This document shows positions 2,619 through 41,227 of a stretch of 64,000 bases of DNA, piece by piece. Source of the DNA: an uncultured Gammaproteobacteria bacterium (GTDB lineage Bacteria; Patescibacteriota; Patescibacteriia; UBA11705; DATKZF01). The stretch spans positions 50,147-114,146 of the forward strand of contig CAYPKD010000004.1 in the NCBI GenBank assembly GCA_964411255.1. Reading direction: 5' to 3'. Below the pieces are notes generated by a model, which did not search any database, was not told the DNA's origin, and worked only from the letters and a program-made list of their open reading frames with translations. Position numbers and translations under genes: made by a program. How positions within the stretch are numbered: position 1 is the stretch's first letter; the number at the start of each line of letters is the position of its first letter.

Positions 2619-4694
2619 TTATCTAAGCCAATCGTCAACCTGATCATCTGTCGGGCTTGGCACAGGTGGCAATGGCGGATGATATTTTATTGAGTCTAAT
2701 TTGTTCAGAATATCCAGCTCTTGATTTAATTCATTATCCCCTATTTTATCCATTTCATTTTGGAAATATTTTGCAAAATCTTCAAAAATGTCTACATAAT
2801 GTTCAGAAACAACAAGCTCCAATGACTGTCGCTCCCATTGGCCAAGCTCATATGGCCATGGCGCAATTAATCCAATTTCCTCAGTTACCCGGAAATCCAT
2901 TACTTCTGGTTCTGGCATTCTGCCTGATGTCATGCCGCTATAATATTCTCTTTCATCAATTATCCAATTTTTTATTAAATCAGCATATCTTGAAAGTAAA
3001 ATACCTTTTTGAATTCCATTGTTTTGATAATAATCAGATTTTTTATTTTCAAAATCAATCTTTTTTTCATCAGAATCTTTTTTTCCAGATCTGTCTTCAT
3101 ACGTTGTCTTTAATACAAGTTTACCATTATCTGATGTTTTTTTAAGTTTTAATAGTACAATTCCACCTTTGGTCTCTCCTTCCTTTGTTTTTGAAGGAAA
3201 CAAAGTATTTACTTTCATAATTTCTCCGGTAGCTTCATCTGCTTCAGGTGATCCATAAACTTTTTCAATATCATAACCGTCAGCTTCTAATATTAAATTT
3301 AGATCAAAGACCAGTGGCGTAACCATAAATTCAAATTCATCATCCATTCTGGTTTTGAATTCATCTTCTGAATGAACAGAATAATAATTTGCTCCTCTGA
3401 TTTTGGTTAAAGATTCAACAAGATCAGTATTAAAATCAACTCCAATTCCAATAAATGTGGTATAAAGGCTATCTTCTGAATTGTTTTCCAGCTGTGAAAA
3501 TAACCCGCCTCTGGTTGTATCTCCCAAGTTTGGCATTGCATCAGTTAAAAATATTATTCTATTCTCATATTCATCAGGATTCAATGCCCCTAGCTCATCA
3601 AAAAGCTCTGTGCCCTCTTTCATCCCAGCTTCCATATTTGTGCCGCCCATTGGTTGAATTTTTAAAATATGATCTTCAATTGCATTCATGTCAGTATTAC
3701 CAACATAATTGAGCGGCTTGGCAAGATATCCATTATCGTCAAAAAGCACCATCCCAAACCTGTCTTCATCATTTAAATGGTCAAGCAAGGCAACAACAGA
3801 TTCATTAGCAATTTCCATTTTAGTTTTGTCTGATTCTTTTAAATTCTCCCTTTCAAGCTGATTGCCAAACTGATCATAATAATATTTATTGAATTGAGAG
3901 CTCATTGATCCTGAAATGTCCAACACAATCACCAGGTTAAGCTTTTTGCGCTCAAAATCGCTTTCCTTTAGGTTTGAATTTAAACCGACTGCTAGATAGT
4001 AATCATCTTTATTTGAAATAGGATCTTTAGAAATTGCATATGAATAGGACGGGCAAAATAATTTTTCGCATTCTTGAGCTTTGCCAGTATCAAAATAATA
4101 GTCATAAAACAGGCCTTCATAAGTTATATCAGTTGGCAATGGCAAAAAATTATTTTTAATATTTTCTCTAAAATTATTAATATCTTTTGCTCCGCCAACA
4201 GCAAAACCAATGCTATCATCACCTGCTCCTCCCATTCCATCAGCAGGAGCCAGACTGGTTTCCAATGCCATATTTTTCATACTTGGTACGCCAGCTTTTT
4301 GAGACAAGCTTCTGAAAAATCCAGCATCTTCTTCTTCCTTAGAATAATCAAATGTCCAGTCATCCACTTTTTCAACCTGAACAAATACTGGTGGTTCGCC
4401 TTGTATATATGTTTTATAAAAATACGGGCCCCCAAAGGCCAGAAGCAAGATAATTGCTGTAGCGCCTGAAAATGCAAATATCCAGCGCCGCAATTTTTTT
4501 AATTGCGCTTTTTTTTCACTGCCCTTTGCTTTTACTTTTAGTTTCTTTTGCAAATCATTTACAAATTGCTTTGATATTACAATGTTTGGCTTGTTTTTGA
4601 GCATTTCTTTTAGCATTTTATTTAATTTTGCCTCATGTTTTTTCATAGTGGGATCGATTTTGTAGATTTCTTTTAGTATTTTGTTGATGTTCAT
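2619..4694 (-). CDS. Membrane-anchored von Willebrand factor A (VWA) domain protein with an anti-sigma-like topology
   Basis: Charged N-terminal region, one TM (WIFAFSGATAIILLLAFGG), then a MIDAS-containing VWA core (LVIVLDISGSMSS). Lies immediately downstream of the ECF sigma gene. Confidence 0.75.
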   Translation of the reverse strand: MNINKILKEIYKIDPTMKKHEAKLNKMLKEMLKNKPNIVISKQFVNDLQKKLKVKAKGSEKKAQLKKLRRWIFAFSGATAIILLLAFGGPYFYKTYIQGEPPVFVQVEKVDDWTFDYSKEEEDAGFFRSLSQKAGVPSMKNMALETSLAPADGMGGAGDDSIGFAVGGAKDINNFRENIKNNFLPLPTDITYEGLFYDYYFDTGKAQECEKLFCPSYSYAISKDPISNKDDYYLAVGLNSNLKESDFERKKLNLVIVLDISGSMSSQFNKYYYDQFGNQLERENLKESDKTKMEIANESVVALLDHLNDEDRFGMVLFDDNGYLAKPLNYVGNTDMNAIEDHILKIQPMGGTNMEAGMKEGTELFDELGALNPDEYENRIIFLTDAMPNLGDTTRGGLFSQLENNSEDSLYTTFIGIGVDFNTDLVESLTKIRGANYYSVHSEDEFKTRMDDEFEFMVTPLVFDLNLILEADGYDIEKVYGSPEADEATGEIMKVNTLFPSKTKEGETKGGIVLLKLKKTSDNGKLVLKTTYEDRSGKKDSDEKKIDFENKKSDYYQNNGIQKGILLSRYADLIKNWIIDEREYYSGMTSGRMPEPEVMDFRVTEEIGLIAPWPYELGQWERQSLELVVSEHYVDIFEDFAKYFQNEMDKIGDNELNQELDILNKLDSIKYHPPLPPVPSPTDDQVDDWLR

Positions 4695-18944: not shown

Positions 18945-19613
18945 TTATTTTACTTGAGTAACTTTACCTATTTGTCCTTTTTTTTCCAATTTTTTAGCTT
19001 GATCTAGCAGATCTGTATCAGTTTTTTTAATAAATATATTCATTGCTACTTTTAGATCATCTGGTAACTCTTTGATATTCGCATTTACAAGATGAAGATC
19101 TTTATTAACTACTAGGTTTCTAGGCAAATACTTAAAATCATTCCGTTCAATAATTAAAGTCCCATCAACAATTAAATGATTTGGTAATCTTTTAATATCA
19201 TAAACAGCAGGATTGATTCGAAGATCACCTTTTATTTTAAGATGTGGAAGAGGGGCTGATCTGTCAAACTTCTTCTCTATCCAATTTACAGCAGCTTGTC
19301 CTGAAAATCCGACTTCATTATGTACCCAGTCTAATACCTCTTCAGGAAGATTTAAATCAAAACCCTCATCTGACTTTTTTTTCTTTTCTTGTTCTTTTTT
19401 ATCTTTTATCCTTAATAATTCATTTTTATAATCAGTATACAAATTCAAAGCTTCTTGCAATTTCCCAGTTTTTTCCGCAGCTACAGCTTGATCCATTATC
19501 TTTCCGAGAAAATCCTTTTCTTCAGGAGTTAAAGGCACACGCTTAACTTCAGCGCGCTTTGGGCGGGCCATTTTGAGTTGATTTTCTAATGATTGGGGTT
19601 GTTCTTTTGGCAT
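18945..19613 (-). CDS. Paralog family member P7
   Basis: Same N-module. C-terminus has LPNHLIVDGTLIIERNDFKYLPRNLVVNKDLHLVNANIKELPDDLKVAMNIFI repeats. Confidence 0.8.
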   Translation of the reverse strand: MPKEQPQSLENQLKMARPKRAEVKRVPLTPEEKDFLGKIMDQAVAAEKTGKLQEALNLYTDYKNELLRIKDKKEQEKKKKSDEGFDLNLPEEVLDWVHNEVGFSGQAAVNWIEKKFDRSAPLPHLKIKGDLRINPAVYDIKRLPNHLIVDGTLIIERNDFKYLPRNLVVNKDLHLVNANIKELPDDLKVAMNIFIKKTDTDLLDQAKKLEKKGQIGKVTQVK

Positions 19614-19621
19614 AATTAGAG

Positions 19622-21103
19622 CTAAATTTCTATTACTCTTTTTACATATGTATTTTCATCTTTAGCAATGATATACGCCTTATTATCATTAATTGGTACA
19701 ACATGGTAAATTTTATCATAATCCTCACTAACTTTTTCTCTTTTTTCATTTACCATAAACCATTTATCACCTTTTTTTGCTTTAAAAACTAGCGTTCCTT
19801 CAATATCCTCAACAGAACTAATTTTATCATATTCATCACTAATTTTTTCACCTTTTTCATTAATTAAAAATTGTTTTCCATCGTTTTCTGCATAAAAAAT
19901 GATCCTACCTCCAATATCTAATGGATGCCTGACAAAATCATAGTCTTTTCCAATAATTTCACCCTTTTCATTTACAATGTATTTTTTTTTCTTGATTTTA
20001 ACTTGATAAAACATAATTCCTGCAACATTGAAAATGAACTCGATTCCATCATAATCTTCACTAAGTTTTTTGCCTTTTTCATCCACGATAAACCATTTAT
20101 CATCTTTTTTTGCTCCAAACACAAGTTTGCCCCCGATGTTTTTTGGAGTACCAATTTCCTCATAATCTTGTTCAAGTTCTTCCCCTTTTTCATTGACGAT
20201 AAACCATTTATTATCTCTGGTTGCCGAGAAAACAATATTCCCCCCAATATTATCCAGATATGAAATCCATTCATATCCTTTACTGATTTTTTCTCCTTTT
20301 TCATTAAATACAAACCATTCGCTACCCTGTCTGGCATGGAAAAACATTTTATCTTCAAAAAATTGAGGAGGATCAATAGCATTATATTCTTGCCCATATT
20401 TACCTTCTTTTTCATTCACCAGAAACCATTTACTACTATTTTTTTTTGTTTCACAGGCATGAAATACACATTCTCCTTTTACATTCATTAGATTTGAAAC
20501 AGATGAATAATTGCTGCCAATCTTTTCTCCTTTCTCATTTACTACAAAGTATTCATCGTTTTTCATTCCACTAATAAATAACTGCCCGGCTATATCAGTA
20601 ATATGATGTATTTCATCAAACGCTGCTCCTATTCTTTCTCCCTGTTCATTAACTACAAAACTCTTCTTATCCTGTTCAACAGGAAAAAATAACCTGCCTA
20701 GGCTATGCATAGGATTATGAGCAAAGTCATAGCCTTTTCCGATCTTTCTGTCTTGCCCATAAATAACATAAAATTTGCCATCTTTTTTTGCACTAAAAGC
20801 AATTTTACCTTCTATATCTGAAGGCTCATAATATTCTTCGTACTCATCTAAATTTATTGTATATTCCTGTTCCTTTTCTGAAATAGATTCCTTTATCTTT
20901 AACAATTCATTCTTATAGTCTGTATAAAATCCCAAAGCCTTTTCTAATTCTCCAGCCTTTTCCGCAACTACAGCTTTTTCCATAATCTCACCTAAGAATT
21001 CTTTTTCCTCAGGTGTCAACGGTACACGTTTAACCTCAGCGCGCTTTGGACGTGCCATCTTCAATTGACTTTCAAGTGATTGTTCAGTTTGTTCTGCTTT
21101 CAT
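19622..21103 (-). CDS. Paralog family member P8: N-module plus about nine WG-like beta repeats
   Basis: Same N-module, then repeats KWFIVNEKGEELEQDYEEIGTPKNIGGKLVFGAKKDDKWFIVDEKGKKL, reminiscent of KWG/WG repeats. Confidence 0.8.
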   Translation of the reverse strand: MKAEQTEQSLESQLKMARPKRAEVKRVPLTPEEKEFLGEIMEKAVVAEKAGELEKALGFYTDYKNELLKIKESISEKEQEYTINLDEYEEYYEPSDIEGKIAFSAKKDGKFYVIYGQDRKIGKGYDFAHNPMHSLGRLFFPVEQDKKSFVVNEQGERIGAAFDEIHHITDIAGQLFISGMKNDEYFVVNEKGEKIGSNYSSVSNLMNVKGECVFHACETKKNSSKWFLVNEKEGKYGQEYNAIDPPQFFEDKMFFHARQGSEWFVFNEKGEKISKGYEWISYLDNIGGNIVFSATRDNKWFIVNEKGEELEQDYEEIGTPKNIGGKLVFGAKKDDKWFIVDEKGKKLSEDYDGIEFIFNVAGIMFYQVKIKKKKYIVNEKGEIIGKDYDFVRHPLDIGGRIIFYAENDGKQFLINEKGEKISDEYDKISSVEDIEGTLVFKAKKGDKWFMVNEKREKVSEDYDKIYHVVPINDNKAYIIAKDENTYVKRVIEI

Positions 21104-21129
21104 ATTGTTATATGATATATGTTACATGA

Positions 21130-21852
21130 TTAAAGTTTTTCAGGCATAAATGATGCCTTTTCCGTTTTCATTAATTCTTTAATATACTTTTGTGCTTTTT
21201 TATCTTTTTTTATTGACTCTTCAAGATCCTTTTCAATCTCTGGCTTAATGTCCATCTCAAATCGTTCAAATGATTTTTCTGATAAATTTTCATCATTTAA
21301 AATTTCAATAATTTTCAAACTCTCTTCAGGTAAATTAAAAAAATCAAGCGAATTATCCTTTTCAACATTATATTTGTCAATCAATATTCTTCTAAATTTT
21401 CTCAGACCACCTATTTCAGCCATTGAATCTAAAACGAGCTCTTTTTGATTAACTACAAAATTTATTTCTTCCTGCCAATGCTGCGGGTCATCAGCCTTAG
21501 CCTTAGCCTTTGCCATTGTATATCTGCGAATTAAATAATCTAAAATCATTTCTCTTTTATATAATGTTTTAATATTATCAATTATCTCTTCATGTTTTTT
21601 CTCCTTTATACGATTTATTTCTTTTTTCCTCTCTTCCTGCAATTTATCGTTTATTTTCATTAATTCGTTTTTATAATCAGTATACAAATCTAGGGCTTCT
21701 TTTAGTTTCCCCGCTTTCTCTGCCGCCACTGCCTTATCCATTATCTTTCCGATAAATTCCTTTTCTTCTGGCGTTAAGGGCACACGCTTAACCTCACTCC
21801 GCCGCGAGCGGGCCATCTTCAATTGACTTTCAAGTGATTGTTCTGCTTTCAT
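21130..21852 (-). CDS. Paralog family member P9: N-module plus a helical, charged C-terminal domain
   Basis: Same N-module. The C-terminus has no LRR or WG repeats. Confidence 0.75.
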   Translation of the reverse strand: MKAEQSLESQLKMARSRRSEVKRVPLTPEEKEFIGKIMDKAVAAEKAGKLKEALDLYTDYKNELMKINDKLQEERKKEINRIKEKKHEEIIDNIKTLYKREMILDYLIRRYTMAKAKAKADDPQHWQEEINFVVNQKELVLDSMAEIGGLRKFRRILIDKYNVEKDNSLDFFNLPEESLKIIEILNDENLSEKSFERFEMDIKPEIEKDLEESIKKDKKAQKYIKELMKTEKASFMPEKL

Positions 21853-21867
21853 ATTGGTTTGAGCAAG

Positions 21868-22503
21868 TTACTGTTCTTCCAATCCCTTTACTCTCCCTTC
21901 GTTTATGGCTTTTAGTACAGATTCTCTTAATTTAGTTTTTGATGCATTACTAATAACTTTGCAATCAACTCTAATATCATCAGGCAATACTACAATATCA
22001 GTATCCAACAAATTTAAATTTCCTCTAACATGTAAATTATTGGGTAAATCGCCTAATGATGTGCCTTTTAATGAGAATTCTCCATCAATCTCTAAATTTT
22101 CAGGCATTTCAGTACAATTTTTTTTATGTTCAATTTTAATAGGACTATCAACTATAATTTTTGGATATTTACTAAAATCAACATTAGCATCTGTCCATGA
22201 TTCAATATTTGTATCTTCTATAAAAATTGATGAAAGCCATTCAATAAATTTTTGCCTGGTATTTTTTATTTTTTCAATTTGTTCCTTTTCTTCCTTTATT
22301 TTATTTAATTCATTTTTATAATCTGTATAATACCCCAAAGCCTCAGCCAATTTTCCTGCCTTTTCCGCAGCTACAGCTTTATCCATAATCTCACCTAAAA
22401 AAGCCTTTTCTTCTGGAGTTAATGGCACACGCTTAACCTCACTCCGCCGCGGGCGGGCCATTTGGAGTTGATTTTCTAATGATTGTTTTGGCTTTTCTTT
22501 CAT
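21868..22503 (-). CDS. Paralog family member P10; likely start at MKEKPKQSLEN
   Basis: Same N-module. C-terminus has MPENLEIDGEFSLKGTSLGDLPNNLHVRGNLNLLDTDIVVLPDDIRV repeats. Confidence 0.75.
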   Translation of the reverse strand: MKEKPKQSLENQLQMARPRRSEVKRVPLTPEEKAFLGEIMDKAVAAEKAGKLAEALGYYTDYKNELNKIKEEKEQIEKIKNTRQKFIEWLSSIFIEDTNIESWTDANVDFSKYPKIIVDSPIKIEHKKNCTEMPENLEIDGEFSLKGTSLGDLPNNLHVRGNLNLLDTDIVVLPDDIRVDCKVISNASKTKLRESVLKAINEGRVKGLEEQ

Positions 22504-22521
22504 AATAAAGGTAATATATTT

Positions 22522-22616
22522 CCGCTGATTTGGGATATTCAATTCTGTTAAATAGATCTCTCGACTGCGCCCTTCACAAGCTCAGGGCTTCGCTAGAGAT
22601 GACAGCTGGACAGCGG
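22522..22616. repeat. Dyad-symmetric element copy D, followed by a conserved TTGAAT...TATATT promoter-like box at 22489-22520 for P10
   Basis: CCGCTGATTTGGG...ATCTCTCGActgcgccc...gcTAGAGATGACAGCTGGACAGCGG. Confidence 0.5.
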
Positions 22617-22624
22617 TATTAAAC

Positions 22625-23104
22625 CTACTTGAGTTTATTAACCTGCTTTACAATTTCATTAATATCTAAATAATCCTCAAAGTTCTTTCCCTTATATGCC
22701 CAGACGATTTCATGATCTGGGTTTATTAAAAATAAAGCTGGTAGGCTCATTTTTTTATTATTTTTTATCTCAGTTTTCACACCAAGCAGCTCTGTTATAT
22801 TAAATTCTGGATCAGGCAAAATTGGAAATTTTAATAATAAAAATGATTTTAGCACAGCAGTGCCCATTTTATTATCATTTGAAATTGCCAAAGGCTTGGC
22901 TTTTAATTTATCTAAATTTTCGTTAAGTTTCATTAAATGTTTTCTGCACAGACCGCACCATTTGCCTCTGATAAAGGTAATCAAAACCCAGTCATCTTTT
23001 TGCCAATTATAAAAATTAAAGATACCCCCTTTAGTATCTTCAAGTTGCCAATTATTAATTTGTATATTCATATACGATTTATTCGTAACTTTAACAACAA
23101 TCAT
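22625..23104 (-). CDS. Thioredoxin-fold redoxin (CxxC: WCGLC)
   Basis: GKWCGLCRKHLMKL redox-active motif in a thioredoxin-like/AhpC-TSA-like context. Confidence 0.6.
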   Translation of the reverse strand: MIVVKVTNKSYMNIQINNWQLEDTKGGIFNFYNWQKDDWVLITFIRGKWCGLCRKHLMKLNENLDKLKAKPLAISNDNKMGTAVLKSFLLLKFPILPDPEFNITELLGVKTEIKNNKKMSLPALFLINPDHEIVWAYKGKNFEDYLDINEIVKQVNKLK

Positions 23105-30075: not shown

Positions 30076-30216
30076 ATATTTTTTCTTTACTTTTCACTAA
30101 TATTTTACGATTTATTTGTATTTTTGTCCACTTTGTATATCAAAACCAGATATTGACATATTTAAATATACATGTTATAATGCATTATACCTCAAAGTCA
30201 ATCAATGGAGGAAAAA

Positions 30217-30426
30217 ATGAAGGAAATCGTTGTACGTGCCAGAAGTACTGATATTCATGCCTGTTTTGCCAATGACCATAAATGTTGGGAATCAGGAAGT
30301 AATATTAGTGAAGCAGTAGGAAAACTACTTAGAAGTCATGCAAAAAAGCTGGGTATTAAAGTCACTGTCAGTGACGATGCCCATACTCAGCATTATTTGG
30401 AAAATCCTGATATCATCAAACGCTAA
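30217..30426 (+). CDS. Small hypothetical protein (start MKEIVV)
   Basis: Perfect promoter TTGACA-17-TATAAT at 30150-30178, then GGAGG SD. Terminator ACCGCCATAtaaaTATGGTGG plus T6 at 30440-30472. Confidence 0.5.
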   Translation: MKEIVVRARSTDIHACFANDHKCWESGSNISEAVGKLLRSHAKKLGIKVTVSDDAHTQHYLENPDIIKR

Positions 30427-30477
30427 ACAAAGAGCTTAATAATACCGCCATATAAATATGGTGGTTTTTTGTAAATT

Positions 30478-30518
30478 AAAAAAAAGAGATGAAATTGTTC
30501 ACCTCTTTATTTTTCTCT
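30478..30518 (-). terminator. Terminator for the MVP-like gene
   Basis: GAGGTGAAcaatTTCATCTC hairpin plus a T-run on the minus strand. Confidence 0.45.
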
Positions 30519-30524
30519 CAAATA

Positions 30525-33476
30525 TTAAACTCTATCAGCTTCTCGCTTGCCGTCTTCAACTTCTCTGGCAGCTTCAGCTTCTAAGCTACCGTTTGGAGAA
30601 TTGATAGCTTCAAGAGCTTTGCCAAATCGAGTACCCTTGAGTAGATGCGTTAAGGCTTTCATACCACCTGCTTCAGTGATAAACCCAAATGCACCAGTAG
30701 CCTGTGGCAGATGCTTTGCCAGCTCTGCCAAAGCAGCCTTGTTACCATGGCCTTCAAGCGCCTCGACCAGTTTTTCAGTAATTGCACGAATTTTGGTCGC
30801 TTCTGCATCAGCAAGAGCCTTGACCAAATCTGCTTCAATTTTAGAAACCTTATCTTTAAATTCAGCGGCTTGATTGCGCCATTCACTTTTAAGAGTAAGG
30901 TCCAGCTTCTCGCTGGCTTCACGATCAACTCTTTCAAGCTCTTTGACTGCATTGGCCATCGCTTGAAGAATCTTAGCATCTTCGTGCTGCTTTGCGCTTC
31001 GCTCATGTGAAAGCTCATGCGCCTGAACCTTGCGTTCATGGTCGAGCTTCTCACTGGCAAGGGCAATCGCATGATTCAGCCCATCTTCATGGCGTTTAAT
31101 ATCATGACTGCTCTGCGCTTTTACAAGCTGAACTTCTTGATCTCTTTTGACCTTGGCAAGTTCAAGCTCAGCTTTTTCAGCTTCCATTTCTTCAACTCGC
31201 TTCTGATGATCCAGAATTACTCTCTGAGCTGTTTCTTCAAGCTGAGTAGTAACAATCTTGCTGTTGGTACTGGCAAGAGTAGTTGCAATCTCTTTATCTG
31301 TATATTGGATATCTAAAACTTCAACCTCATCAACCCTCATATTGTTTTCATTAAACAGTAATCCTGGGCGATGCTTTTGATCTTCAGTTTTTACGCCGAG
31401 AATAGCATCTCTCAAGAATTCTGCCATATTCATATCAACAAGCAGGTCATTCAGAGTTTTTTCTTTTGCCTGAAGGCGTAGACGACTGCGCAGATTATCG
31501 CACATAAATCTTACATAATCTTTTACATTAAACCATTTGGCTCTTTCAGTATCTTTTTCGCCGACAAACTGAACGCCATATTTCAGATCAACCACAATTT
31601 CTACAAATTCTCTTGTCTCCAGCGTTACCTGATCAGTAACAAAGTTACCTGTTGTACGCAAGAAACACGTAGGCAACTGATTTACATCAGTCTTTGGACG
31701 TCCCCTTGAAAGCCTGAGAACCTCAAGAGTTTCATCAAATGCCAGCAGCTCAGTGCATGGGCCTACTACAGGCCGGCGGCTATCGCGGCTGTTAATCAAA
31801 ATTGCCTCATTATTTGGTACTACAACAGAAATAGCCCACGGCGTGTCTACCATTGCATCATCACGCACTTTCTTATGCGGAGCATGCTCTGCAATCCACA
31901 TATTCCATTCACGTCCAGGAACCTTTCGATGAACATGTTTTTGCTTTCGCGGATCCAAAATAAGCTTGACCTTGCCCTTTTCAGTATCAACACTTCCAGT
32001 ATCCACGTCTGCAACGTAAACACCGCTTTTTTGATCCACACCGATTGCCTGGACAAAGACCTGAGAATGGTCATTGCCAATATGAGGCTCTCTGGTCTCA
32101 GGATCAATAACTTCAAAATCATTTGAGGGCATCAGATATGCATCTACATCACTGATGAAGATTTCATCGCCCTTGAAATATTTTTTCTTTTCCAGCACTA
32201 CTGCCTGAGGCAGCTGCTTTTGCAAATCAGAAGCATCAATTTCATCAGCCACCACCCGGCACAGAATGCCACGGTCGCTTCGCAGATGATACATATTATA
32301 AACACGATGCTCAGAACCTTGACGCCTAAATCTGTCATACGGACCAGGAAAAACACGTCCAGGACCCTGCTTGTGTTTTTCATTCCCATCTTCATCTACA
32401 ACCACGCAGAACTGAGTCGGTCCCAGAACCACAGCTTCCCTGACAACTTCCTGGGAAGACTCAGGTACTGACCTCTGCTGGAACACGCTTGCAAGCTTAA
32501 TTACTTCACGCGGCCGCAAAATTTTATCAAGTGCATGTCTTAGCGCTTCATATGGTCTATAATCAGGTAATAATCGCTCATACTGTTTCTGAACATCTTG
32601 GAATACATCGTTAATACCAGCTTTGTTAAAAAACTGAGCAATATTTTCGATCTTAATATCACCCTTTCGAACCCTTCGATAAATAATATCCTTTGCTACG
32701 CCCTGCGATAACTCGTCATCCTGACTGACCGTAATCGATCTTTCAGCCACCACTGTAATGCCAGTTGGAGGAATATAGGTTTCTCGAGTACTCCCAGGAA
32801 TTACAATTCGCTGGCCAACCCTGAAAACAACGGCTGGCGGAAGTTCTTTTGTACTTCCCTTTTTATCAGTCTTTTTCGTTTCCTTCTTTTCTTCAGCTGG
32901 TTCATCTTCGTCTCTTGTAGCAAGTTCAGAAACCTTAAGACTGTCGTCAGCATCTTTGTCAAAAACAGTTTCGTCAACTACAGCCTTTTTGATTTTAGCG
33001 CACTCAACAGTAACATCATAATATGGAGCGTCAGCATCAACCTGTTCAGATTCAACTTCAACCATCAGATATTGGCTGGCAGAAAGATGATGTACTTTTA
33101 CAACCTCAACCTTTTGGCCAGGCCAAACAGGGAAATGCCCAGAAATGACATTTCGCTTTTTGCCATATGCCAAATCTTTCATCTGGCCGCGGCCAGACTT
33201 ATACGAGCCGTTGGGATAGCCATCTTCAAATGATTCTGCTGGATTATGAATTACAGCATATTCATCAGGATTTAGAGTAATAAAACGCTGAATTGCATCT
33301 GTTGCATTATCAACTTCAATAACCTCACACGGCTTTTCCGGATCAGGAATAACGAAAATATCATCATCAGTAGCTTCTAAAGGATCTGGGCCGAAAATCG
33401 GCCTAAATGTACCTTCTTTTTTACTAATCGTCCATACAAATTCACCTTTAATTAAAGGTCTTTTTGTAGATGCCAT
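30525..33476 (-). CDS. Major vault protein (MVP) homolog; start MASTKRPLIKG with SD AGGAGGTG
   Basis: The shoulder region aligns to MVP: VVGPCTELLAFDETLEVLRLSRGRPK...TDQVTLETREFVEIVVDLKYGVQFV...AKWFNVKDYVRFMCDNLRSRLR versus human [27 protein letters not shown]...[26 protein letters not shown]...[22 protein letters not shown]. There is also a long C-terminal coiled coil, as in the cap-helix. GC about 45-50% against about 30% around it. Confidence 0.75.
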   Translation of the reverse strand: MASTKRPLIKGEFVWTISKKEGTFRPIFGPDPLEATDDDIFVIPDPEKPCEVIEVDNATDAIQRFITLNPDEYAVIHNPAESFEDGYPNGSYKSGRGQMKDLAYGKKRNVISGHFPVWPGQKVEVVKVHHLSASQYLMVEVESEQVDADAPYYDVTVECAKIKKAVVDETVFDKDADDSLKVSELATRDEDEPAEEKKETKKTDKKGSTKELPPAVVFRVGQRIVIPGSTRETYIPPTGITVVAERSITVSQDDELSQGVAKDIIYRRVRKGDIKIENIAQFFNKAGINDVFQDVQKQYERLLPDYRPYEALRHALDKILRPREVIKLASVFQQRSVPESSQEVVREAVVLGPTQFCVVVDEDGNEKHKQGPGRVFPGPYDRFRRQGSEHRVYNMYHLRSDRGILCRVVADEIDASDLQKQLPQAVVLEKKKYFKGDEIFISDVDAYLMPSNDFEVIDPETREPHIGNDHSQVFVQAIGVDQKSGVYVADVDTGSVDTEKGKVKLILDPRKQKHVHRKVPGREWNMWIAEHAPHKKVRDDAMVDTPWAISVVVPNNEAILINSRDSRRPVVGPCTELLAFDETLEVLRLSRGRPKTDVNQLPTCFLRTTGNFVTDQVTLETREFVEIVVDLKYGVQFVGEKDTERAKWFNVKDYVRFMCDNLRSRLRLQAKEKTLNDLLVDMNMAEFLRDAILGVKTEDQKHRPGLLFNENNMRVDEVEVLDIQYTDKEIATTLASTNSKIVTTQLEETAQRVILDHQKRVEEMEAEKAELELAKVKRDQEVQLVKAQSSHDIKRHEDGLNHAIALASEKLDHERKVQAHELSHERSAKQHEDAKILQAMANAVKELERVDREASEKLDLTLKSEWRNQAAEFKDKVSKIEADLVKALADAEATKIRAITEKLVEALEGHGNKAALAELAKHLPQATGAFGFITEAGGMKALTHLLKGTRFGKALEAINSPNGSLEAEAAREVEDGKREADRV

Positions 33477-33667
33477 TCCCCACCTCCTTGCATAGGGGGT
33501 CAGACGGGATTGCAAACCAGCTATTTGCTGATTTTCAACGAGCTTTTGGCGTTTTTGCCATAGTAAAAATTACTCCTTTTTATTCTTTTTGTCAAGCTTT
33601 TCTCAAATTATTATATTTGACAATTTTCAGTGCTCATGATATTATTTATTATCCAAAGGAGGCATGA

Positions 33668-38153: not shown

Positions 38154-39238
38154 TAAAAATTAAATACTGGATTTGCTATATATTTTAAAATTGGATTTTC
38201 AAAATCACCCTGATATAAAACTTTTCCCGTAAAATTCCAGACTACTTTTCTTTCTTTGACAATTCGCTTTTTCTGAACTTTCTTTCTCCAATTCCAAACT
38301 AATTTTAAATTCTTAGCGCTAAAAAACCATTTATATACTTTTAATCTTTGCTTAAACCAGCCGTTACATAATGAAAAGCCGAATAAACCCAATTCATATG
38401 AAACAAATGCTGGGAAAAGTAATATTAATGTTGCCCAATGATAACAAACTAAGGTGGTAATCATGCGGTTTCGTTCCATCCAAAAAAACTGCTTTATGCT
38501 TTTTATAAATTCAAATTTATGATAAACCACTGATTTGTAAGCAATCACATTTTTTAAACCATAAAGCTTTGTTTTCCAACCCCATTCCAAATCATCATGG
38601 TACATAAAATACTCTTCAGTAAACTCACCAATCTTTTCAAAAACTTGTTTTGAAACCAGCATTGCTGCGCCGCTGGGATATACAATTTGATCTGATTCTT
38701 TTTCAATATTCAATTCTGAAAATTTTTCCTTATATTTATCAGAAAATCCAAAACCTAAAAAATGCAATGAATTTCCCAGGCTATTTATTAATTCTGGCTG
38801 CTGATGCAGCATTAACCTTGACTGAATTAAACCAATCTTTGGATCTGATTTATATATTTTCAGCGCTTCAATTAAAAAATTCGGATCAACTGTAGTATCC
38901 ATATTTAACATAAAAAAATAATCATAACCCTGCTGTATTGCCCTTTCAATTCCAGCATTATTTGCTGCTCCAAAACCAACATTTTCAGCATTGACCACAA
39001 TGCCAGCCTGGATTCTATCAGTTTCCCCCATTCCAAAATCAAACTGCGGGCACAAATCCATAATATCCTTCCTTGTCTGCTCGCTTGATTCATTATCTAC
39101 AATAAAAATTTTCAAAAGTTCCTTTGGATAATTAACTTTGCTCAAACTGTCAGCGCATTCTTTTAGAAACCGCCTGGCATAATCCTTGTAATTGATTAAT
39201 ATTATTGCAATTTTAAAATTACTATTCATATATAACAT
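38120..39238 (-). CDS. Family 2 glycosyltransferase
   Basis: IAIILINYKDY...FIVDNES GT2 signature. Confidence 0.75.
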   Translation of the reverse strand: MLYMNSNFKIAIILINYKDYARRFLKECADSLSKVNYPKELLKIFIVDNESSEQTRKDIMDLCPQFDFGMGETDRIQAGIVVNAENVGFGAANNAGIERAIQQGYDYFFMLNMDTTVDPNFLIEALKIYKSDPKIGLIQSRLMLHQQPELINSLGNSLHFLGFGFSDKYKEKFSELNIEKESDQIVYPSGAAMLVSKQVFEKIGEFTEEYFMYHDDLEWGWKTKLYGLKNVIAYKSVVYHKFEFIKSIKQFFWMERNRMITTLVCYHWATLILLFPAFVSYELGLFGFSLCNGWFKQRLKVYKWFFSAKNLKLVWNWRKKVQKKRIVKERKVVWNFTGKVLYQGDFENPILKYIANPVFNFYWQVVKRIIFW

Positions 39239-39803
39239 CTAAACAGATCTTGTTAGATTTAGCTAACTCCGCTGCCTCTACTAACTCCTTGTTTTCTCGA
39301 TCAACTATAATATTAAGTGTAACAAATAAATGTGCAGGCAATTTTTTTAATAATTTACACCCTTTAAGATTTAAGTTGCCAATAACTTTTAAATGAGCAG
39401 GTAGTTGTGTAATACTTGAATCATGCACTGTAAGATTCTCTCCTGCTACTCGTATATCTGGCGGCTCACTTAAATTAAAATTATGCGCAGTCCAATGCCA
39501 AGCAGCATCATCTTCATCTGTAATGCCAATTTCATCTCTCACCCATTCATGCAGCATATCAAAATCCCATTGCTCTTTATCCTTTTCTTTTTTTTCTTTA
39601 ATCTTTAACAATTCATTTTTATAATCAGTATACAAATTCAAAGCCTCTTGCAATTTCCCAGTTTTTTCCGCAGCCACAGCTTTGTCCATAATTTCACCCA
39701 GAAATTCCTTTTCTTCTGGAGTCAAAGGCACACGTTTAACCTCATGGCGCCGCGGCCGGGCCATTTTTAATTGGCTTTCTAAAGATTGCGGTTGTTCTGG
39801 CAT
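39222..39803 (-). CDS. Paralog family member P11; likely start at MPEQPQSLES
   Basis: Same N-module. C-terminus has LPAHLKVIGNLNLKGCKLLKKLPAHLFVTLNIIV repeats. Confidence 0.75.
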   Translation of the reverse strand: MPEQPQSLESQLKMARPRRHEVKRVPLTPEEKEFLGEIMDKAVAAEKTGKLQEALNLYTDYKNELLKIKEKKEKDKEQWDFDMLHEWVRDEIGITDEDDAAWHWTAHNFNLSEPPDIRVAGENLTVHDSSITQLPAHLKVIGNLNLKGCKLLKKLPAHLFVTLNIIVDRENKELVEAAELAKSNKICLDVIYE

Positions 39804-39844
39804 ATAGTAATAAGTAACGGGTAATTGGTAATTAGGAATTGATA

Positions 39845-41227
39845 TCAAATCTCAATTATTTTTTTCACAATTTTATCTCCTTCTTCGTCTGTAATTCGAG
39901 CAATAATATATGCTTTATTGTCAGTCAAAGGCTCAAGGCAATAAATTTCATCATACTTTTCACTCACTGCTTTACCTTGTTCATTTGCCACAAACCATGA
40001 TCCATCTCCCTCGTCACTAGCAATAATGGCTATTTCCCCTCCTATATCCTCTATTTGCCCAATAAGATAGTAATCTGCAATTTGTTCTCCTTTTTCATTT
40101 ACCACATACCACTTATCTTTTAAAGCTGTGAAAACAATAGTTCCGTTAATATCTTTGATATTATCAGTACGCTTATATCCCTGATCCCTTCCAATCTCTG
40201 TTCCATCTTCAGTGACTATAAATGAATTCCCCTCTCTGTCAATTGAAGAATAAATAATTTTACCAGCAACCTCTAGTGGTTTTCCAATCCCTCCATATTT
40301 TTCCCCAAACTCTCTTCCGTTTTCATCTACAATTATCCATCTTCTACCCTTTTTTGCCTGATAAACTAATTTTCCTCCTATTTCCATCGGACTTTCAACA
40401 TAAAGATAAGCCTCTCCAAATTCTTCACCATCTTCATTGGCAATAATCCATTTTTTTCCTTTTTTACCGCGAAAAGTAATTTTATTATTAATAAATCTTA
40501 AGTCTTTTACATCATCATATTCTTTTCCTAATTCCTTTCCATCCTCATTAGCAATAATCCATCTTTCACCCTGCTTGGCTAAAAAAAATATTTTACCCTT
40601 AATAAACTCAGGTAAATCAACTGAATCATATTGTTCACCAATTTTTTTGCCTTTTTCGGTATATATAAAAGCCTTACCGTCTTTTTTTGCTATAAAAACT
40701 ATTTGGCCCCCTAAATCTTCAGGACATACAACATTATCAAATTCTCCACCAACCTTTTTCCCTTTTTCATTAATTATAAATTCTTTATTGCCTTTTCTAG
40801 CATTAAATGCTGCCCGTCCATTAATATTTTTTAGGTTCCACGTTAAATCATATTCTTCTCCGATTTGTTCTCCTTTTTCATTAATTACTAAATGTTTTTC
40901 ATTCTTATCCGTTACTTCTATTACTGGCTTTCCATTAATATCTACTGGATCTGCATGATCAATATAATCTTTTAAGTCAATAGTGAATTCTGATCCTTTT
41001 TCAGCTAAAGATTCTTTAATTCGCAGCAATTCATTTTTATATTCTGTATACAAATTCAAGGCTTCCTGCAACTTTCCGGCCTTTTCCGCAGCCACAGCCT
41101 TATCCATAATCTCACCCAGAAAATCCTTTTCTTCTGGCGTCAGCGGAACACGCTTAACCTCATGGCGCCGCGGCCGGGCCATTTTGAGTTGGGATTCGAG
41201 GGATTGTTTTGGTTTTTCTTTTGGCAT
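39845..41227 (-). CDS. Paralog family member P12: N-module plus WG-like beta repeats
   Basis: Same N-module. Repeats KWIIANEDGKELGKEYDDVKDLRFINNKITFRGKKGKKWIIANEDGEEFG. Confidence 0.8.
   Translation of the reverse strand: MPKEKPKQSLESQLKMARPRRHEVKRVPLTPEEKDFLGEIMDKAVAAEKAGKLQEALNLYTEYKNELLRIKESLAEKGSEFTIDLKDYIDHADPVDINGKPVIEVTDKNEKHLVINEKGEQIGEEYDLTWNLKNINGRAAFNARKGNKEFIINEKGKKVGGEFDNVVCPEDLGGQIVFIAKKDGKAFIYTEKGKKIGEQYDSVDLPEFIKGKIFFLAKQGERWIIANEDGKELGKEYDDVKDLRFINNKITFRGKKGKKWIIANEDGEEFGEAYLYVESPMEIGGKLVYQAKKGRRWIIVDENGREFGEKYGGIGKPLEVAGKIIYSSIDREGNSFIVTEDGTEIGRDQGYKRTDNIKDINGTIVFTALKDKWYVVNEKGEQIADYYLIGQIEDIGGEIAIIASDEGDGSWFVANEQGKAVSEKYDEIYCLEPLTDNKAYIIARITDEEGDKIVKKIIEI

Follow-up and report, generated by a model that had tools for sequence, protein, structure and literature searches.

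A full-length major vault protein of the prokaryotic branch encoded in a patescibacterial genome

What vaults do has been an unanswered question since 1986, and the minor vault components PARP4, TEP1 and vault RNA are not universal even among eukaryotes. The major vault protein (MVP) makes up the shell of the eukaryotic particle. In human MVP, repeats R4-R5 contribute to the surface on which PARP4 docks, and the shoulder binds NAD+/ADP-ribose (PMC12280208); TEP1, for its part, has TIR-like NADase character and is kin to a defence system of bacteria (PMC12280208; 10.64898/2026.05.01.722283). Bacterial MVP homologs have been described in Myxococcales, Cytophagales and Oscillatoriales (10.1101/872010), and MVPs of phages and mobile elements in the gut Caudoviricetes ctOa11/ctRi15 (10.1101/2023.11.10.566534) and in Borg subfamily 0795 (PMC9879509). 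These bacterial, phage and Borg reports cover few groups, none with experimental study (10.1101/872010; 10.1101/2023.11.10.566534; PMC9879509), and the description of bacterial MVPs as sporadic and functionally unexplored, given in an earlier note on the DNA analysed here, agrees with the literature (10.1101/872010; 10.1101/2023.11.10.566534). Here we describe a complete MVP found in reduced patescibacterial genomes and in huge phages, standing alone without PARP4, TEP1 or vault RNA.

The gene and its product

We analysed a 64-kb stretch of DNA (the window) whose gene content is cellular (QueA, PRPP synthetase, rmlC, envelope glycosyltransferases and VIT1) and whose QueA is closest to Patescibacteria, with relatives at 70–78% identity. 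It encodes an MVP-family protein of 983 residues (111 kDa, pI 5.6). The strand was absent from the earlier note; the ORF lies on the minus strand.

30483-30508, minus strand: intrinsic-terminator-like hairpin with an 11-bp stem, followed by the T-run TTTTTTAATTT (terminator scan and sequence)
30525-33476, minus strand: complete coding sequence of the MVP family, stop codon included (ORF list, Pfam, phmmer, hhalign)
33483-33488, minus strand: Shine-Dalgarno sequence AGGAGG, 6 nt 5' of the ATG at 33476 (read from the sequence)
33567-33595, minus strand: candidate promoter, TTGACA (33595-33590), 17-nt spacer and weak -10 TAATTT (by eye)

Translation from a TTG at 33515 would give 996 residues; we favour the ATG at 33476, and hence 983 residues, because the AGGAGG motif, a strong ribosome-binding site, lies just 5' of it. 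The 5' gene is divergent and the 3' gene convergent, so the MVP gene forms a separate transcription unit, and the terminator-like hairpin starts 17 nt past its stop codon. Of the gene's own promoter and terminators, as proposed earlier, the hairpin and the single transcription unit stand but the promoter is not confirmed, a promoter scan having called zero minus-strand sites 5' of the gene. Gene order around the MVP gene is repeated in four independent assemblies, on which ground we rejected misassembly or a chimera. We also considered and rejected a viral source for the window, because its genes are cellular.

The protein begins with β repeats, followed by a linker and a five-helix insert; four further β repeats then lead to an SPFH-like shoulder, and a predicted helix of 195 residues and a short conserved C-terminus complete the chain.

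32970-33476, minus strand: residues 1-169, N-terminal β-strand repeats aligned to MVP R1-R2 (AF2, hhalign)
32835-32969, minus strand: residues 170-214, disordered charged linker (pLDDT 32-45, alignment gaps)
32727-32834, minus strand: residues 215-250, conserved β segment GQRIxIPG..TYIPPTGI aligned to part of MVP R3 (homolog consensus, hhalign)
32469-32726, minus strand: residues 251-336, clade-specific five-helix module at the R4-R5 position of eukaryotic MVP (AF2, hhalign, alignment)
31647-32468, minus strand: residues 337-610, four β repeats aligned to MVP R6-R9 (BLASTP, phmmer, Pfam, AF2)
31296-31646, minus strand: residues 611-727, SPFH-like shoulder domain (PF11978, Foldseek)
30711-31295, minus strand: residues 728-922, one continuous predicted helix of about 195 residues, cap-helix equivalent (AF2 DSSP, alignments)
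30528-30710, minus strand: residues 923-983, short predicted C-terminal helices, candidate cap-ring equivalent (38-homolog consensus, hhalign)

We conclude that the ORF encodes a genuine full-length MVP, whose homology starts at the N-terminus and extends into the putative cap-ring region. The Pfam MVP_shoulder model (PF11978) matched residues 611–727 with 83.7 bits (cut-off 25; E 1.3e-23), covering profile positions 3–118 of 118, and the significant phmmer matches in the PDB were MVP chains only (E about 1e-22). Profile comparison by hhalign (38 homologs on the query side, 15 vertebrate MVPs on the other) gave a probability of 100% and an E value of 2.4e-40 over 792 columns, aligning query 3–954 with human 5–861. 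BLASTP aligned human MVP at 27% identity over 484 residues (100 bits), and the motif quoted in the earlier note is real: the two proteins share V.GP..L...E....VL.LS.GRPK, TD..T.ET and AK.F.V.D.V..C....SR.R. The AF2 monomer model (mean pLDDT 79) retrieved full-length vault shells as its top 12 Foldseek matches in the PDB (E 5e-32 to 1e-25). Single Pfam repeat models stayed below threshold (Vault_3, 22.9 vs 28.8 bits at residues 553–605; Vault_2, 16 vs 23.6 bits at residues 66–124), PF01505 gave no match in a Pfam search of the protein, and NCBIfam, PHROGs and PADLOC scans of it returned zero matches. The MVP assignment made in the earlier note is thus strongly supported. It had named similarity confined to a generic SPFH/band-7 domain as evidence to the contrary; the similarity extends beyond the SPFH-like shoulder, so the MVP identity holds, and isolated murine R1-R7 crystal structures were matched as well (E 5e-11).

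Residues 1–169 are modelled as strands at pLDDT 81–91, and hhalign pairs query 3–145 with human 5–121. The linker holds 14 acidic (D+E) and 10 basic (K+R) residues and varies in length within the clade. In the β segment that follows, which corresponds to human residues about 137–160 (hhalign), G221, Q222, G228, P236, P237 and G239 are invariant or nearly so. The second set of repeats (pLDDT 87–95) corresponds to residues 260–519 of human and rat MVP (BLASTP, phmmer), and K595 in the GRPK loop, an invariant residue, sits just N-terminal to the shoulder. Where a long C-terminal coiled coil had earlier been likened to the cap-helix, a long helix is predicted at residues 728–922 (pLDDT 49–82); in the human and rat proteins its aligned counterpart is the cap-helix (phmmer, BLASTP, hhalign). 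Beyond it the model is of low confidence (pLDDT 40–59); the motif LVEALEGxGxK...LAxxLP is conserved in the consensus of 38 homologs, and hhalign reaches human residue 861.

Compared with eukaryotic MVP (human/rat; PDB 4V60, 4HL8, 9BW5, 9Z4W), which provides the best structural matches, the protein has the same part order including the GRPK loop, and both are soluble and lack a membrane anchor. Identity is only about 23–27%, however, and where eukaryotic MVP has R4-R5, the patescibacterial protein has the disordered linker and the five-helix module. The cap helix is about 155 residues long in rat MVP and is predicted to be about 195 here. Instead of the nine consecutive repeats R1-R9 of solved vaults, we found about seven β repeats N-terminal to the shoulder, query 3–610 aligning with human R1-R3 and R6-R9 (hhalign); the particle geometry may therefore differ from that of the vault.

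Relatives and distribution

Sequence comparison places the protein in the prokaryotic MVP branch, within a deep clade common to Patescibacteria and huge phages. The proteins most closely related to it come from Patescibacteria and huge phages; they are 40–49% identical and score 500–940 bits, compared with about 470 for Myxococcota and 100 for human MVP. All 81 clusters (90% identity) with E below 1e-146 that are named belong to Patescibacteria except one, labelled Nanoarchaeia, which yet sits on a 424-kb IMG/VR viral contig. The best 120 matches included no UniRef/EukProt eukaryote entry, and none of 126 representative relatives was closer to human MVP than to bacterial MVPs. In a neighbour-joining tree the protein falls within the clade of Patescibacteria and huge phages (bootstrap 100/100), with Myxococcota/Planctomycetota MVPs as sister clade and vertebrate MVPs far outside; distances were 0.8–1.0 inside the clade, 1.3–1.5 to Myxococcota/Planctomycetota and 2.1–2.4 to vertebrates. 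Vertebrates are the only eukaryotes in this tree, and protist and cyanobacterial MVPs are absent from it, because the 120 matches listed for the human MVP query were vertebrates only.

MVPs from Myxococcota and Planctomycetota, such as those of Nannocystis exedens and Polyangium spp., align over the full length, at about 32–33% identity over 97% of the protein, and have an extra region in the same place, after repeat 3 and before the R6-like repeat. In Myxococcota this insert is low-complexity and proline- or alanine-rich, unlike the conserved five-helix module here; these MVPs also form a separate clade (bootstrap 100/100), and their hosts have large genomes whereas patescibacterial genomes are very small. 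Two IMG/VR viral contigs, 424 kb and 195 kb long, carry close relatives (46% identity). These phage MVPs belong to the same clade and agree in shoulder, helix and C-terminal motif, but represent the short form (874–878 residues) lacking the five-helix insert, which is missing from short forms of 845–880 residues in general; they lie on viral contigs, whereas the MVP gene here sits in a cellular window. More distant MVPs, 27–28% identical over residues 337–958, are found in GenBank huge phages of 735 kb and 462 kb (LR756500/LR756501). Distribution is sporadic, with 8 patescibacterial species among 117 confirmed matches in 185,579 species genomes. Across 12 loci we found no conserved neighbours in the 10 cellular genomes; synteny was confined to the two huge-phage loci, where an R2K ATP-grasp gene precedes the MVP gene.

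Origin and base composition

One account of the gene's origin, somewhat doubtful in our view and compatible with any vault-like shell that the protein might form, is that of an accessory gene passed between Patescibacteria and huge phages, long ago or repeatedly, either from prokaryote to prokaryote or with phages as vehicles; its raised GC3 would then partly preserve the composition of a richer donor. The sporadic distribution, the lack of a conserved neighbourhood at the 10 cellular loci and the relatives on IMG/VR contigs and in GenBank huge phages all fit such movement. Phylogeny inside the clade is star-like and discordant with taxon labels, and the nearest MVP is only 49% identical while the QueA of the window has relatives at 70–78%. 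Against it, the MVP gene has no integrase, transposase or phage gene beside it (PHROGs scans of the immediate neighbours were empty), a repeat search around it for att-like repeats or island borders gave only short, chance-level matches, and a tRNA-Trp is nearby but has the MVP gene on its 5' side. Phage MVP copies are GC-richer than their own flanks, and phages are therefore not the GC-rich source; moreover, the synonymous shift runs from A-ending to T-ending codons and not overall towards G and C.

Base composition had also been read in the earlier note as that of a GC-rich island and as consistent with horizontal acquisition, possibly from a eukaryotic host. The gene, put there at 45–50% GC in a background of roughly 30%, measures 43.1% against 32.7% for the rest of the window, with 300-nt windows along it ranging from 37 to 47%, and the excess ends at the borders of the coding sequence. 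Amino-acid composition alone predicts a GC fraction of 0.391 (observed 0.431, background 0.331) and so accounts for about 61% of the excess; by codon position, 58% of the excess falls at position 1. GC3 is 0.334 vs 0.258 (z about 2). At 4-fold sites the share of A drops (0.38 to 0.25) and that of T increases (0.35 to 0.44), C and G being unchanged, and none of the 50 isoleucine codons is ATA. Raised GC relative to the flanks recurs in 11 of 12 diverged patescibacterial and huge-phage MVP loci, and the composition and codon shift goes in the same direction at 10–12 of 12 related loci. Patescibacterial MVP genes lie 5–18 GC points above their flanks, whereas Myxococcota MVP genes are level with theirs. 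We conclude that the rise in GC is mostly a matter of amino-acid composition, the rest reflecting avoidance of A-ending codons, and that both traits are common to the relatives in other Patescibacteria.

Recent acquisition from a eukaryote, which would suit a gene some 10 GC points above its surroundings, a somewhat raised GC3 and a protein best known from eukaryotes, is barely credible given that human MVP is 27% identical and scores 100 bits against 500–940, that no UniRef/EukProt eukaryote entry is among the best 120 matches and none of the 126 relatives is nearer human MVP, that vertebrates fall far outside the clade, and that a GC offset concentrated at the first codon position, not raised for C or G at 4-fold sites and ending at the CDS borders, is shared by 11 of 12 diverged relatives. 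Neither of the checks proposed for this claim bore it out. The phylogeny returned a clade of Patescibacteria and huge phages with vertebrates as the most distant group (protist MVPs lying outside the sampling), and codon usage and GC3 revealed a clade-wide shift away from A-ending codons, with no foreign-island signature. With nearest relatives that are prokaryotic or phage, an excess that is 61% compositional and no flanking mobility genes, horizontal acquisition as proposed is unsupported; the GC rise is a clade-wide property of the coding sequence and not a mark of eukaryotic transfer, which removes an attractive story.

Candidate roles of the protein

We think it probable that this full-length MVP of the prokaryotic branch forms a vault-like or half-vault shell in the cytoplasm that sequesters or scaffolds cargo. 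Self-assembly into such a shell is the most likely behaviour to be expected from its sequence: many copies side by side would build a large hollow particle, assembly being driven by the shoulder domains and the long helices, as in eukaryotic MVP, whose vault is a hollow particle of 78 subunits with D39 symmetry, and in SPFH cages. The shell would probably sequester or scaffold something without PARP4, TEP1 or vault RNA. An Rfam scan of the 64-kb window found two tRNAs only and no vault RNA, and no PARP, PARP4-like, TEP1-like, TROVE or NACHT gene occurs among the annotated neighbours or at the related loci examined, which sets the locus apart from eukaryotic vaults. Should any part serve as a lineage-specific module for cargo or interactions, the five-helix insert is the strongest candidate, because it occupies the place of the human PARP4-docking repeats. 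Several observations go against the shell: the helix and C-terminus of the AF2 model are of moderate to low confidence (pLDDT 40–82), the count of about seven β repeats may alter the geometry, the nucleotide pocket of human MVP is mostly lost, and no conserved neighbour at the 10 cellular loci points to a cargo.

Codon usage bears on abundance. Of the flanking genes that scored most MVP-like in codon use (the top two at each related locus), we annotated eight, together with two window ORFs. Only RpoD and IF-2 fit high expression; the others were an ABC transporter, a domain of unknown function and six without a family. The codon bias weakly suggests high expression of the MVP homolog, which is what a stoichiometric shell protein would need. 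A gene of about 3 kb retained in a very small genome, with codon bias suggesting high expression, offers a minimal, tractable system for asking whether an MVP shell alone forms a prokaryotic cage, and what it contains.

A broader version of the vault-like shell, which we advance tentatively, is that this MVP clade supplies Patescibacteria and huge phages with true vault-like cages, the five-helix module serving as a swappable cargo adaptor. Vaults or half-vaults would then be a prokaryotic and viral structure and not a eukaryotic invention. Patescibacterial cells are only a few hundred nanometres across; if the proposal is right, each particle would fill a noticeable share of the cell, implying a major role in storage, sequestration or protection during phage infection.

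Alternatively, the protein could be a membrane-associated SPFH-type scaffold that organizes or shields a membrane patch, like the cages of flotillin, HflK/C, stomatin or prohibitin. These are large homo- or hetero-oligomeric assemblies whose subunits likewise have a long helix after an SPFH-like domain, the helices forming the wall and roof. The shoulder is SPFH-like, Foldseek matched flotillin, erlin, prohibitin, stomatin and HflK/C (E 1e-7 to 1e-4), envelope glycosyltransferase genes abound in the window, and a recent study reports that eukaryotic vaults associate with membranes in situ (PMC13100048). SPFH/band-7 cages are, however, membrane-anchored and devoid of MVP β repeats, whereas here about 610 residues of such repeats precede the shoulder and the protein is free of an anchor: it has a polar N-terminus and no transmembrane segment or hydrophobic hairpin (the 19-residue Kyte-Doolittle average peaks at 1.0). 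PF01145 (Band_7) gave no match in the Pfam search at E up to 1, and no NfeD-like or FtsH-like partner adjoins the gene. We consider a membrane scaffold unlikely.

Less likely still is a component of defence or phage conflict, for example a cage that would sequester nucleotides or NAD-derived signals. The analogy is with NAD+/ADP-ribose binding by the human MVP shoulder and with the NADase TEP1; in its favour, K595 and the R/K at position 593 of the GRPK loop correspond to human K506 and R504, and the gene is carried by phages. Its surroundings speak against such a role: PADLOC matched neither the protein nor its neighbours, no defence gene is found among the annotated neighbours adjoining the MVP gene, and the related loci examined have no TIR, DUF4062 or PARP gene as a neighbour. 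The human NAD+ pocket is mostly not conserved, with 4 of 14 residues kept. K506 (K595 of the GRPK loop here) and L517 are invariant, P505 is mostly kept, and R504 (position 593 here) is R or K in 10 of 12; R437, R507, P508, H509, R511, D521, W545, P565 and K573 are replaced. The protein described here retains F522, a position at which 10 of 12 relatives have R.

Vault-protein identity and domain order

The gene at 30525-33476 on the minus strand encodes a 983-aa protein that the earlier note had taken for a homolog of major vault protein (MVP), and comparisons of domains, sequences, profiles and predicted structure all bore this out. The Pfam MVP_shoulder model matched residues 611-727 with 83.7 bits and an E value of 1.3e-23 (cut-off 25), and the repeat models Vault_3 and Vault_2 gave sub-threshold matches. 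All significant matches in a sequence search of solved structures were major vault proteins (E about 1e-22). BLASTP against human MVP, whose sequence was confirmed end to end against the 893-aa PDB MVP chain 11dr_A (1983.7 bits), gave 27% identity across 484 residues and reproduced the motif quoted in the earlier note. Profile-profile alignment of 38 homologs with 15 vertebrate MVPs had a probability of 100% and an E value of 2.4e-40 over 792 columns, with query positions 3-954 corresponding to 5-861 of human MVP. We also compared an AlphaFold2 model, built from the 38-sequence alignment (mean pLDDT 79), with the PDB using Foldseek. The best 12 matches were full-length vault shells (E values of 5e-32 to 1e-25), followed by murine R1-R7 repeat crystal structures (5e-11) and then by SPFH cages (flotillin, erlin, prohibitin and HflK/C; 1e-7 to 1e-4), so that the likeness is not limited to a generic SPFH/band-7 domain, the outcome that the earlier note had named as grounds for refutation. 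We conclude that the protein is homologous to MVP.

The model and the alignments gave the following order of domains:

aa 1-169: beta repeats corresponding to R1-R2
aa 170-214: charged disordered linker
aa 215-250: conserved beta segment, matching part of R3
aa 251-336: compact five-helix module
aa 337-610: four beta repeats corresponding to R6-R9
aa 611-727: shoulder
aa 728-922: single unbroken helix, about 195 residues long
aa 923-983: short helices that carry a conserved motif

Among the 14 residues lining the human NAD+ pocket, only K506, L517, P505 and partly R504 are retained; human K506 corresponds to K595 here and is invariant in 43 of 43 sequences. Since the pocket is mostly not retained, nucleotide binding cannot be inferred for the 983-aa protein.

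Relatives in Patescibacteria and huge phages

A word-indexed search returned 223 relatives. The identical protein is present in NCBI, JGI, ENA and Logan assemblies, the longest contig measuring 364 kb, and identical gene order across four independent assemblies rules out a chimeric assembly. After these copies, the best relatives reach only 47-49% identity. Matches above 500 bits formed about 81 clusters (90% identity), whose source names were all Patescibacteria (Moraniibacteriota, Buchananbacteria, Parcubacteria and others) except for one "Nanoarchaeia", which sits on a 424-kb contig that is viral according to IMG/VR and has phage-like genes. A second viral contig, of 195 kb, also carries an MVP copy, and remoter copies (27-28% identity) occur on huge phages in GenBank (735 kb and 462 kb). 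When 1.84 billion representatives were searched exhaustively, 835 clusters passed E <=1e-3 and 387 passed E <=1e-30; among the 126 representatives listed, none was closer to human MVP than to bacterial proteins. With one genome per species (185,579 species), 117 MVP loci were confirmed, possibly an undercount since the scan used two peptide patterns and divergent copies may be missed. Eight are patescibacterial, and the other loci listed were mostly from Myxococcota, with some from Planctomycetota and a few from other or unclassified bacteria.

In a neighbour-joining (not maximum-likelihood) tree of 43 proteins and 852 columns, in which vertebrates were the only eukaryotes and cyanobacteria and Bacteroidota were absent, Patescibacteria and huge phages formed one clade (100 of 100 bootstraps) beside a Myxococcota/Planctomycetota clade. 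Corrected distances from the 983-aa protein were 0.8-1.0 within its clade, 1.3-1.5 to Myxococcota and Planctomycetota and 2.1-2.4 to vertebrates. We conclude that the gene belongs to an old branch of the MVP family that is prokaryotic and viral. The housekeeping QueA of the window is closest to patescibacterial proteins, and other genes there are cellular (PRPP synthetase, rmlC, many envelope glycosyltransferases, an O-antigen-ligase-like protein and VIT1); together with the clade placement, this identifies the MVP gene as a resident of a patescibacterial genome. Its sporadic distribution, the lack of synteny and the copies on phages speak for transfer among Patescibacteria and huge phages, which we regard as a tentative possibility; it concerns the origin of the gene and is compatible with a vault-like shell.

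Bacterial MVP homologs are known from Myxococcales, Cytophagales and Oscillatoriales (10.1101/872010), homologs occur in two gut phages (10.1101/2023.11.10.566534), and MVP is among the Borg protein families tabulated in PMC9879509. Several members of the present clade already bear the label "major vault protein" from the JGI pipeline. Our literature search returned no paper linking MVP with Patescibacteria or CPR. The MVPs of Patescibacteria and huge phages are a sizeable unreported clade, not a new kind of system.

MVP lies at 10001-12625 of the 424-kb contig (loci L086/L088), and the 195-kb contig carries locus L087. The GenBank huge-phage homologs lie at 17221-19020 (LR756501/LR756503) and 20958-22751 (LR756500). 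The 424-kb contig has also been deposited under a 'Candidatus Nanoarchaeia archaeon' MAG protein, MDD5651075.1, an entry that appears to be a mis-binned phage. Immediately upstream of MVP, both IMG/VR phages have an R2K ATP-grasp gene; in L086 the next gene after MVP is HPr-like, and its relative lies about 2.9 kb downstream in L087. A third tier of MVP-like proteins (P0263-P0369; more than 100 clusters at 50% identity, 800-950 aa) comes from unnamed metagenome contigs, with about 30% identity to the 983-aa protein across the shoulder and helix, and is nearer to bacterial than to human MVP. The 'prohibitin domain-containing' BFVD entry A0A3G5A4K1 (Harvfovirus sp., 802 aa) aligned to our model over its full length (E 4e-10, 1047 columns) and, on this structural match, could be an MVP-like protein, so far overlooked, from a giant virus of eukaryotes.

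Gene organisation, base composition and predicted assembly

Two features adjoin the 3' end of the MVP gene:

30508-30483, minus strand: terminator-like hairpin and T-run, 17 nt past the MVP stop codon (terminator scan and sequence)
30205-30426, plus strand: convergent 73-aa ORF with a consensus promoter 5' and its own terminator 3'

The gene is a single long ORF in the window's ORF list (30525-33515, minus strand). An AGGAGG box at 33483-33488, 6 nt upstream of ATG 33476, favours this start over an upstream TTG, and the length of 983 aa given earlier holds from there. Of the promoter and terminators previously ascribed to the gene, the terminator-like hairpin stands; the promoter is not confirmed, since the promoter scan made no minus-strand call upstream and a candidate (TTGACA, 17 nt, weak TAATTT) was seen by eye only. 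MVP lies between a divergent gene upstream and the convergent 73-aa ORF downstream and must therefore be transcribed alone. Its neighbours are the 73-aa ORF, a zinc-ribbon ORF, a small lipoprotein-like ORF, rmlC, a 177-aa ORF and tRNA-Trp, none of which is kept beside MVP in other Patescibacteria. Neither att-like repeats nor integrase, transposase or phage genes adjoin MVP, no vault RNA was found in the window, PARP-like, TROVE-like and NACHT-like proteins are absent among the annotated genes around MVP, and PADLOC gave no defence match.

The 73-aa ORF has a perfect consensus promoter at 30153-30181 (TTGACA, 17 nt with TG, TATAAT) and a plus-strand terminator at 30444-30465. In codon usage this ORF ranks among the window's most MVP-like; it matched no family in Pfam, PHROGs or PADLOC and does not adjoin MVP in other lineages. 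Elsewhere, a related gene lies <=10 kb from MVP in three of ten patescibacterial loci (L007 481-2451, L011 16128-17663 and L024 13556-15424), the L007 member, which alone was scanned, being IF-2 by Pfam; an ORF family of about 85 aa also occurs near MVP (L006 389-643, L010 12719-12982 and L085 7764-8024). Both may be chance.

The GC contrast proposed earlier (45-50% against about 30%) is real but smaller than stated, at 43.1% for the MVP gene against 32.7% for the rest of the window; in 300-nt windows, the raised GC (37-47%) starts and stops at the CDS borders. The 10-point excess falls 58% on first, 17% on second and 25% on third codon positions. Encoding the MVP amino acids with the codon usage of the other 70 window ORFs gave an expected GC of 39.1%, so that amino-acid composition accounts for 61% of the excess; A, D, E, V and R are higher than in the other ORFs and I, K, N, F and Y lower. 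The share of A at 4-fold sites is 0.25 instead of 0.38 and that of T 0.44 instead of 0.35, with C and G unchanged, and the synonymous shift is thus not a general drift toward G and C. ATA is used at 0 of 50 isoleucines (29% elsewhere); the gene also avoids TTA, AGA, GGA and TCA and favours CGT, AAG and CAG. Avoidance of ATA and AGA with U-ending 4-fold codons is the classic mark of translational selection in highly expressed bacterial genes, and the codon bias suggests abundant MVP expression.

Comparison with flanking genes settles the GC question. MVP exceeded its flanks by 5-18 GC points in all eight patescibacterial species-genome loci, whereas the two differed by at most about 1 point in ten loci from Myxococcota, Planctomycetota and related bacteria. 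Across 12 loci, TTA was lower in 12, ATA in 10 and 4-fold A in 11, and AAG was higher in 11. As these relatives are just 40-50% identical in protein, the offset is an old trait of the gene and not the residue of a recent arrival; with 61% of the excess in the window's gene compositional, its earlier reading as a sign of horizontal acquisition is not supported. Among the two most MVP-like flank genes per locus by codon use, those with Pfam matches include RpoD and IF-2, which weakly supports a native high-expression bias. The 5-18-point offset recurs throughout patescibacterial loci L005-L011, L024 and L085, GC3 in the Berkelbacteria locus L024 reaching 0.72 against 0.45, and MVP GC matches that of the flanks in L012-L060 (Myxococcota and Planctomycetota). 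The synonymous part of the offset differs widely in size between loci and is not fully explained.

The analysis shows homology to MVP, the order of domains, a soluble protein and a stand-alone gene; assembly and role are inferred. Eukaryotic MVP self-assembles without partners. By analogy, we somewhat favour a vault-like cage: many MVP copies would pack laterally through their shoulder domains and long helices, as in eukaryotic MVP and SPFH cages, and form a large hollow shell in the cytoplasm, either vault-like or a half-vault, for which abundant expression of the kind suggested by the codon bias would be needed. Compared with rat vaults, such a particle would probably have a shorter barrel and a longer cap, given its roughly seven repeats and longer helix, and the five-helix module is the best candidate for a lineage-specific interaction site. 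A membrane-attached SPFH-type scaffold is unlikely, as the protein has no anchor of any kind. We consider a role in defence or nucleotide sequestration quite improbable, the NAD+ pocket not being conserved and defence genes being absent among the neighbours. Recent acquisition from a eukaryote, the donor suggested earlier, has almost nothing to commend it, since relatives, distances and the tree (with vertebrates as its eukaryotes) point to bacteria and phages.

Other features of the window

Two further loci were annotated:

2619-4694, minus strand: VWA (von Willebrand factor A) domain protein, 691 aa
46319-47934, minus strand: two neighbouring paralogs (33% identical) of PF02578 (Cu-oxidase_4 / YfiH-like)

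The vault partner PARP4 also contains a VWA domain; no link of the VWA protein to MVP is evident, as it lies 26 kb away and has no PADLOC match. The minus strand carries most of the larger ORFs, and only a few 1-kb windows lack a negative GC skew, consistent with a single replication arm.

Twelve minus-strand paralogs lie at 12510-16265 (five genes), 18284-22542 (five genes) and 39222-41227 (two genes). Their N-termini share a module (about 70-80 aa, 75-95% identity) that gives a weak MIT-like match in Pfam and has the motif SLESQLKM.RPRR.EVKRVPLTPEEKDFLGEIMDKAVAAEKAG.LQEAL..Y..YKNELL.IKE. Their C-terminal parts are divergent, some being leucine-rich-repeat-like, and the 460- and 493-aa members carry repeated C-terminal 'WIIANEDGKE.G' units. 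The twelve look like a polymorphic surface or effector family.
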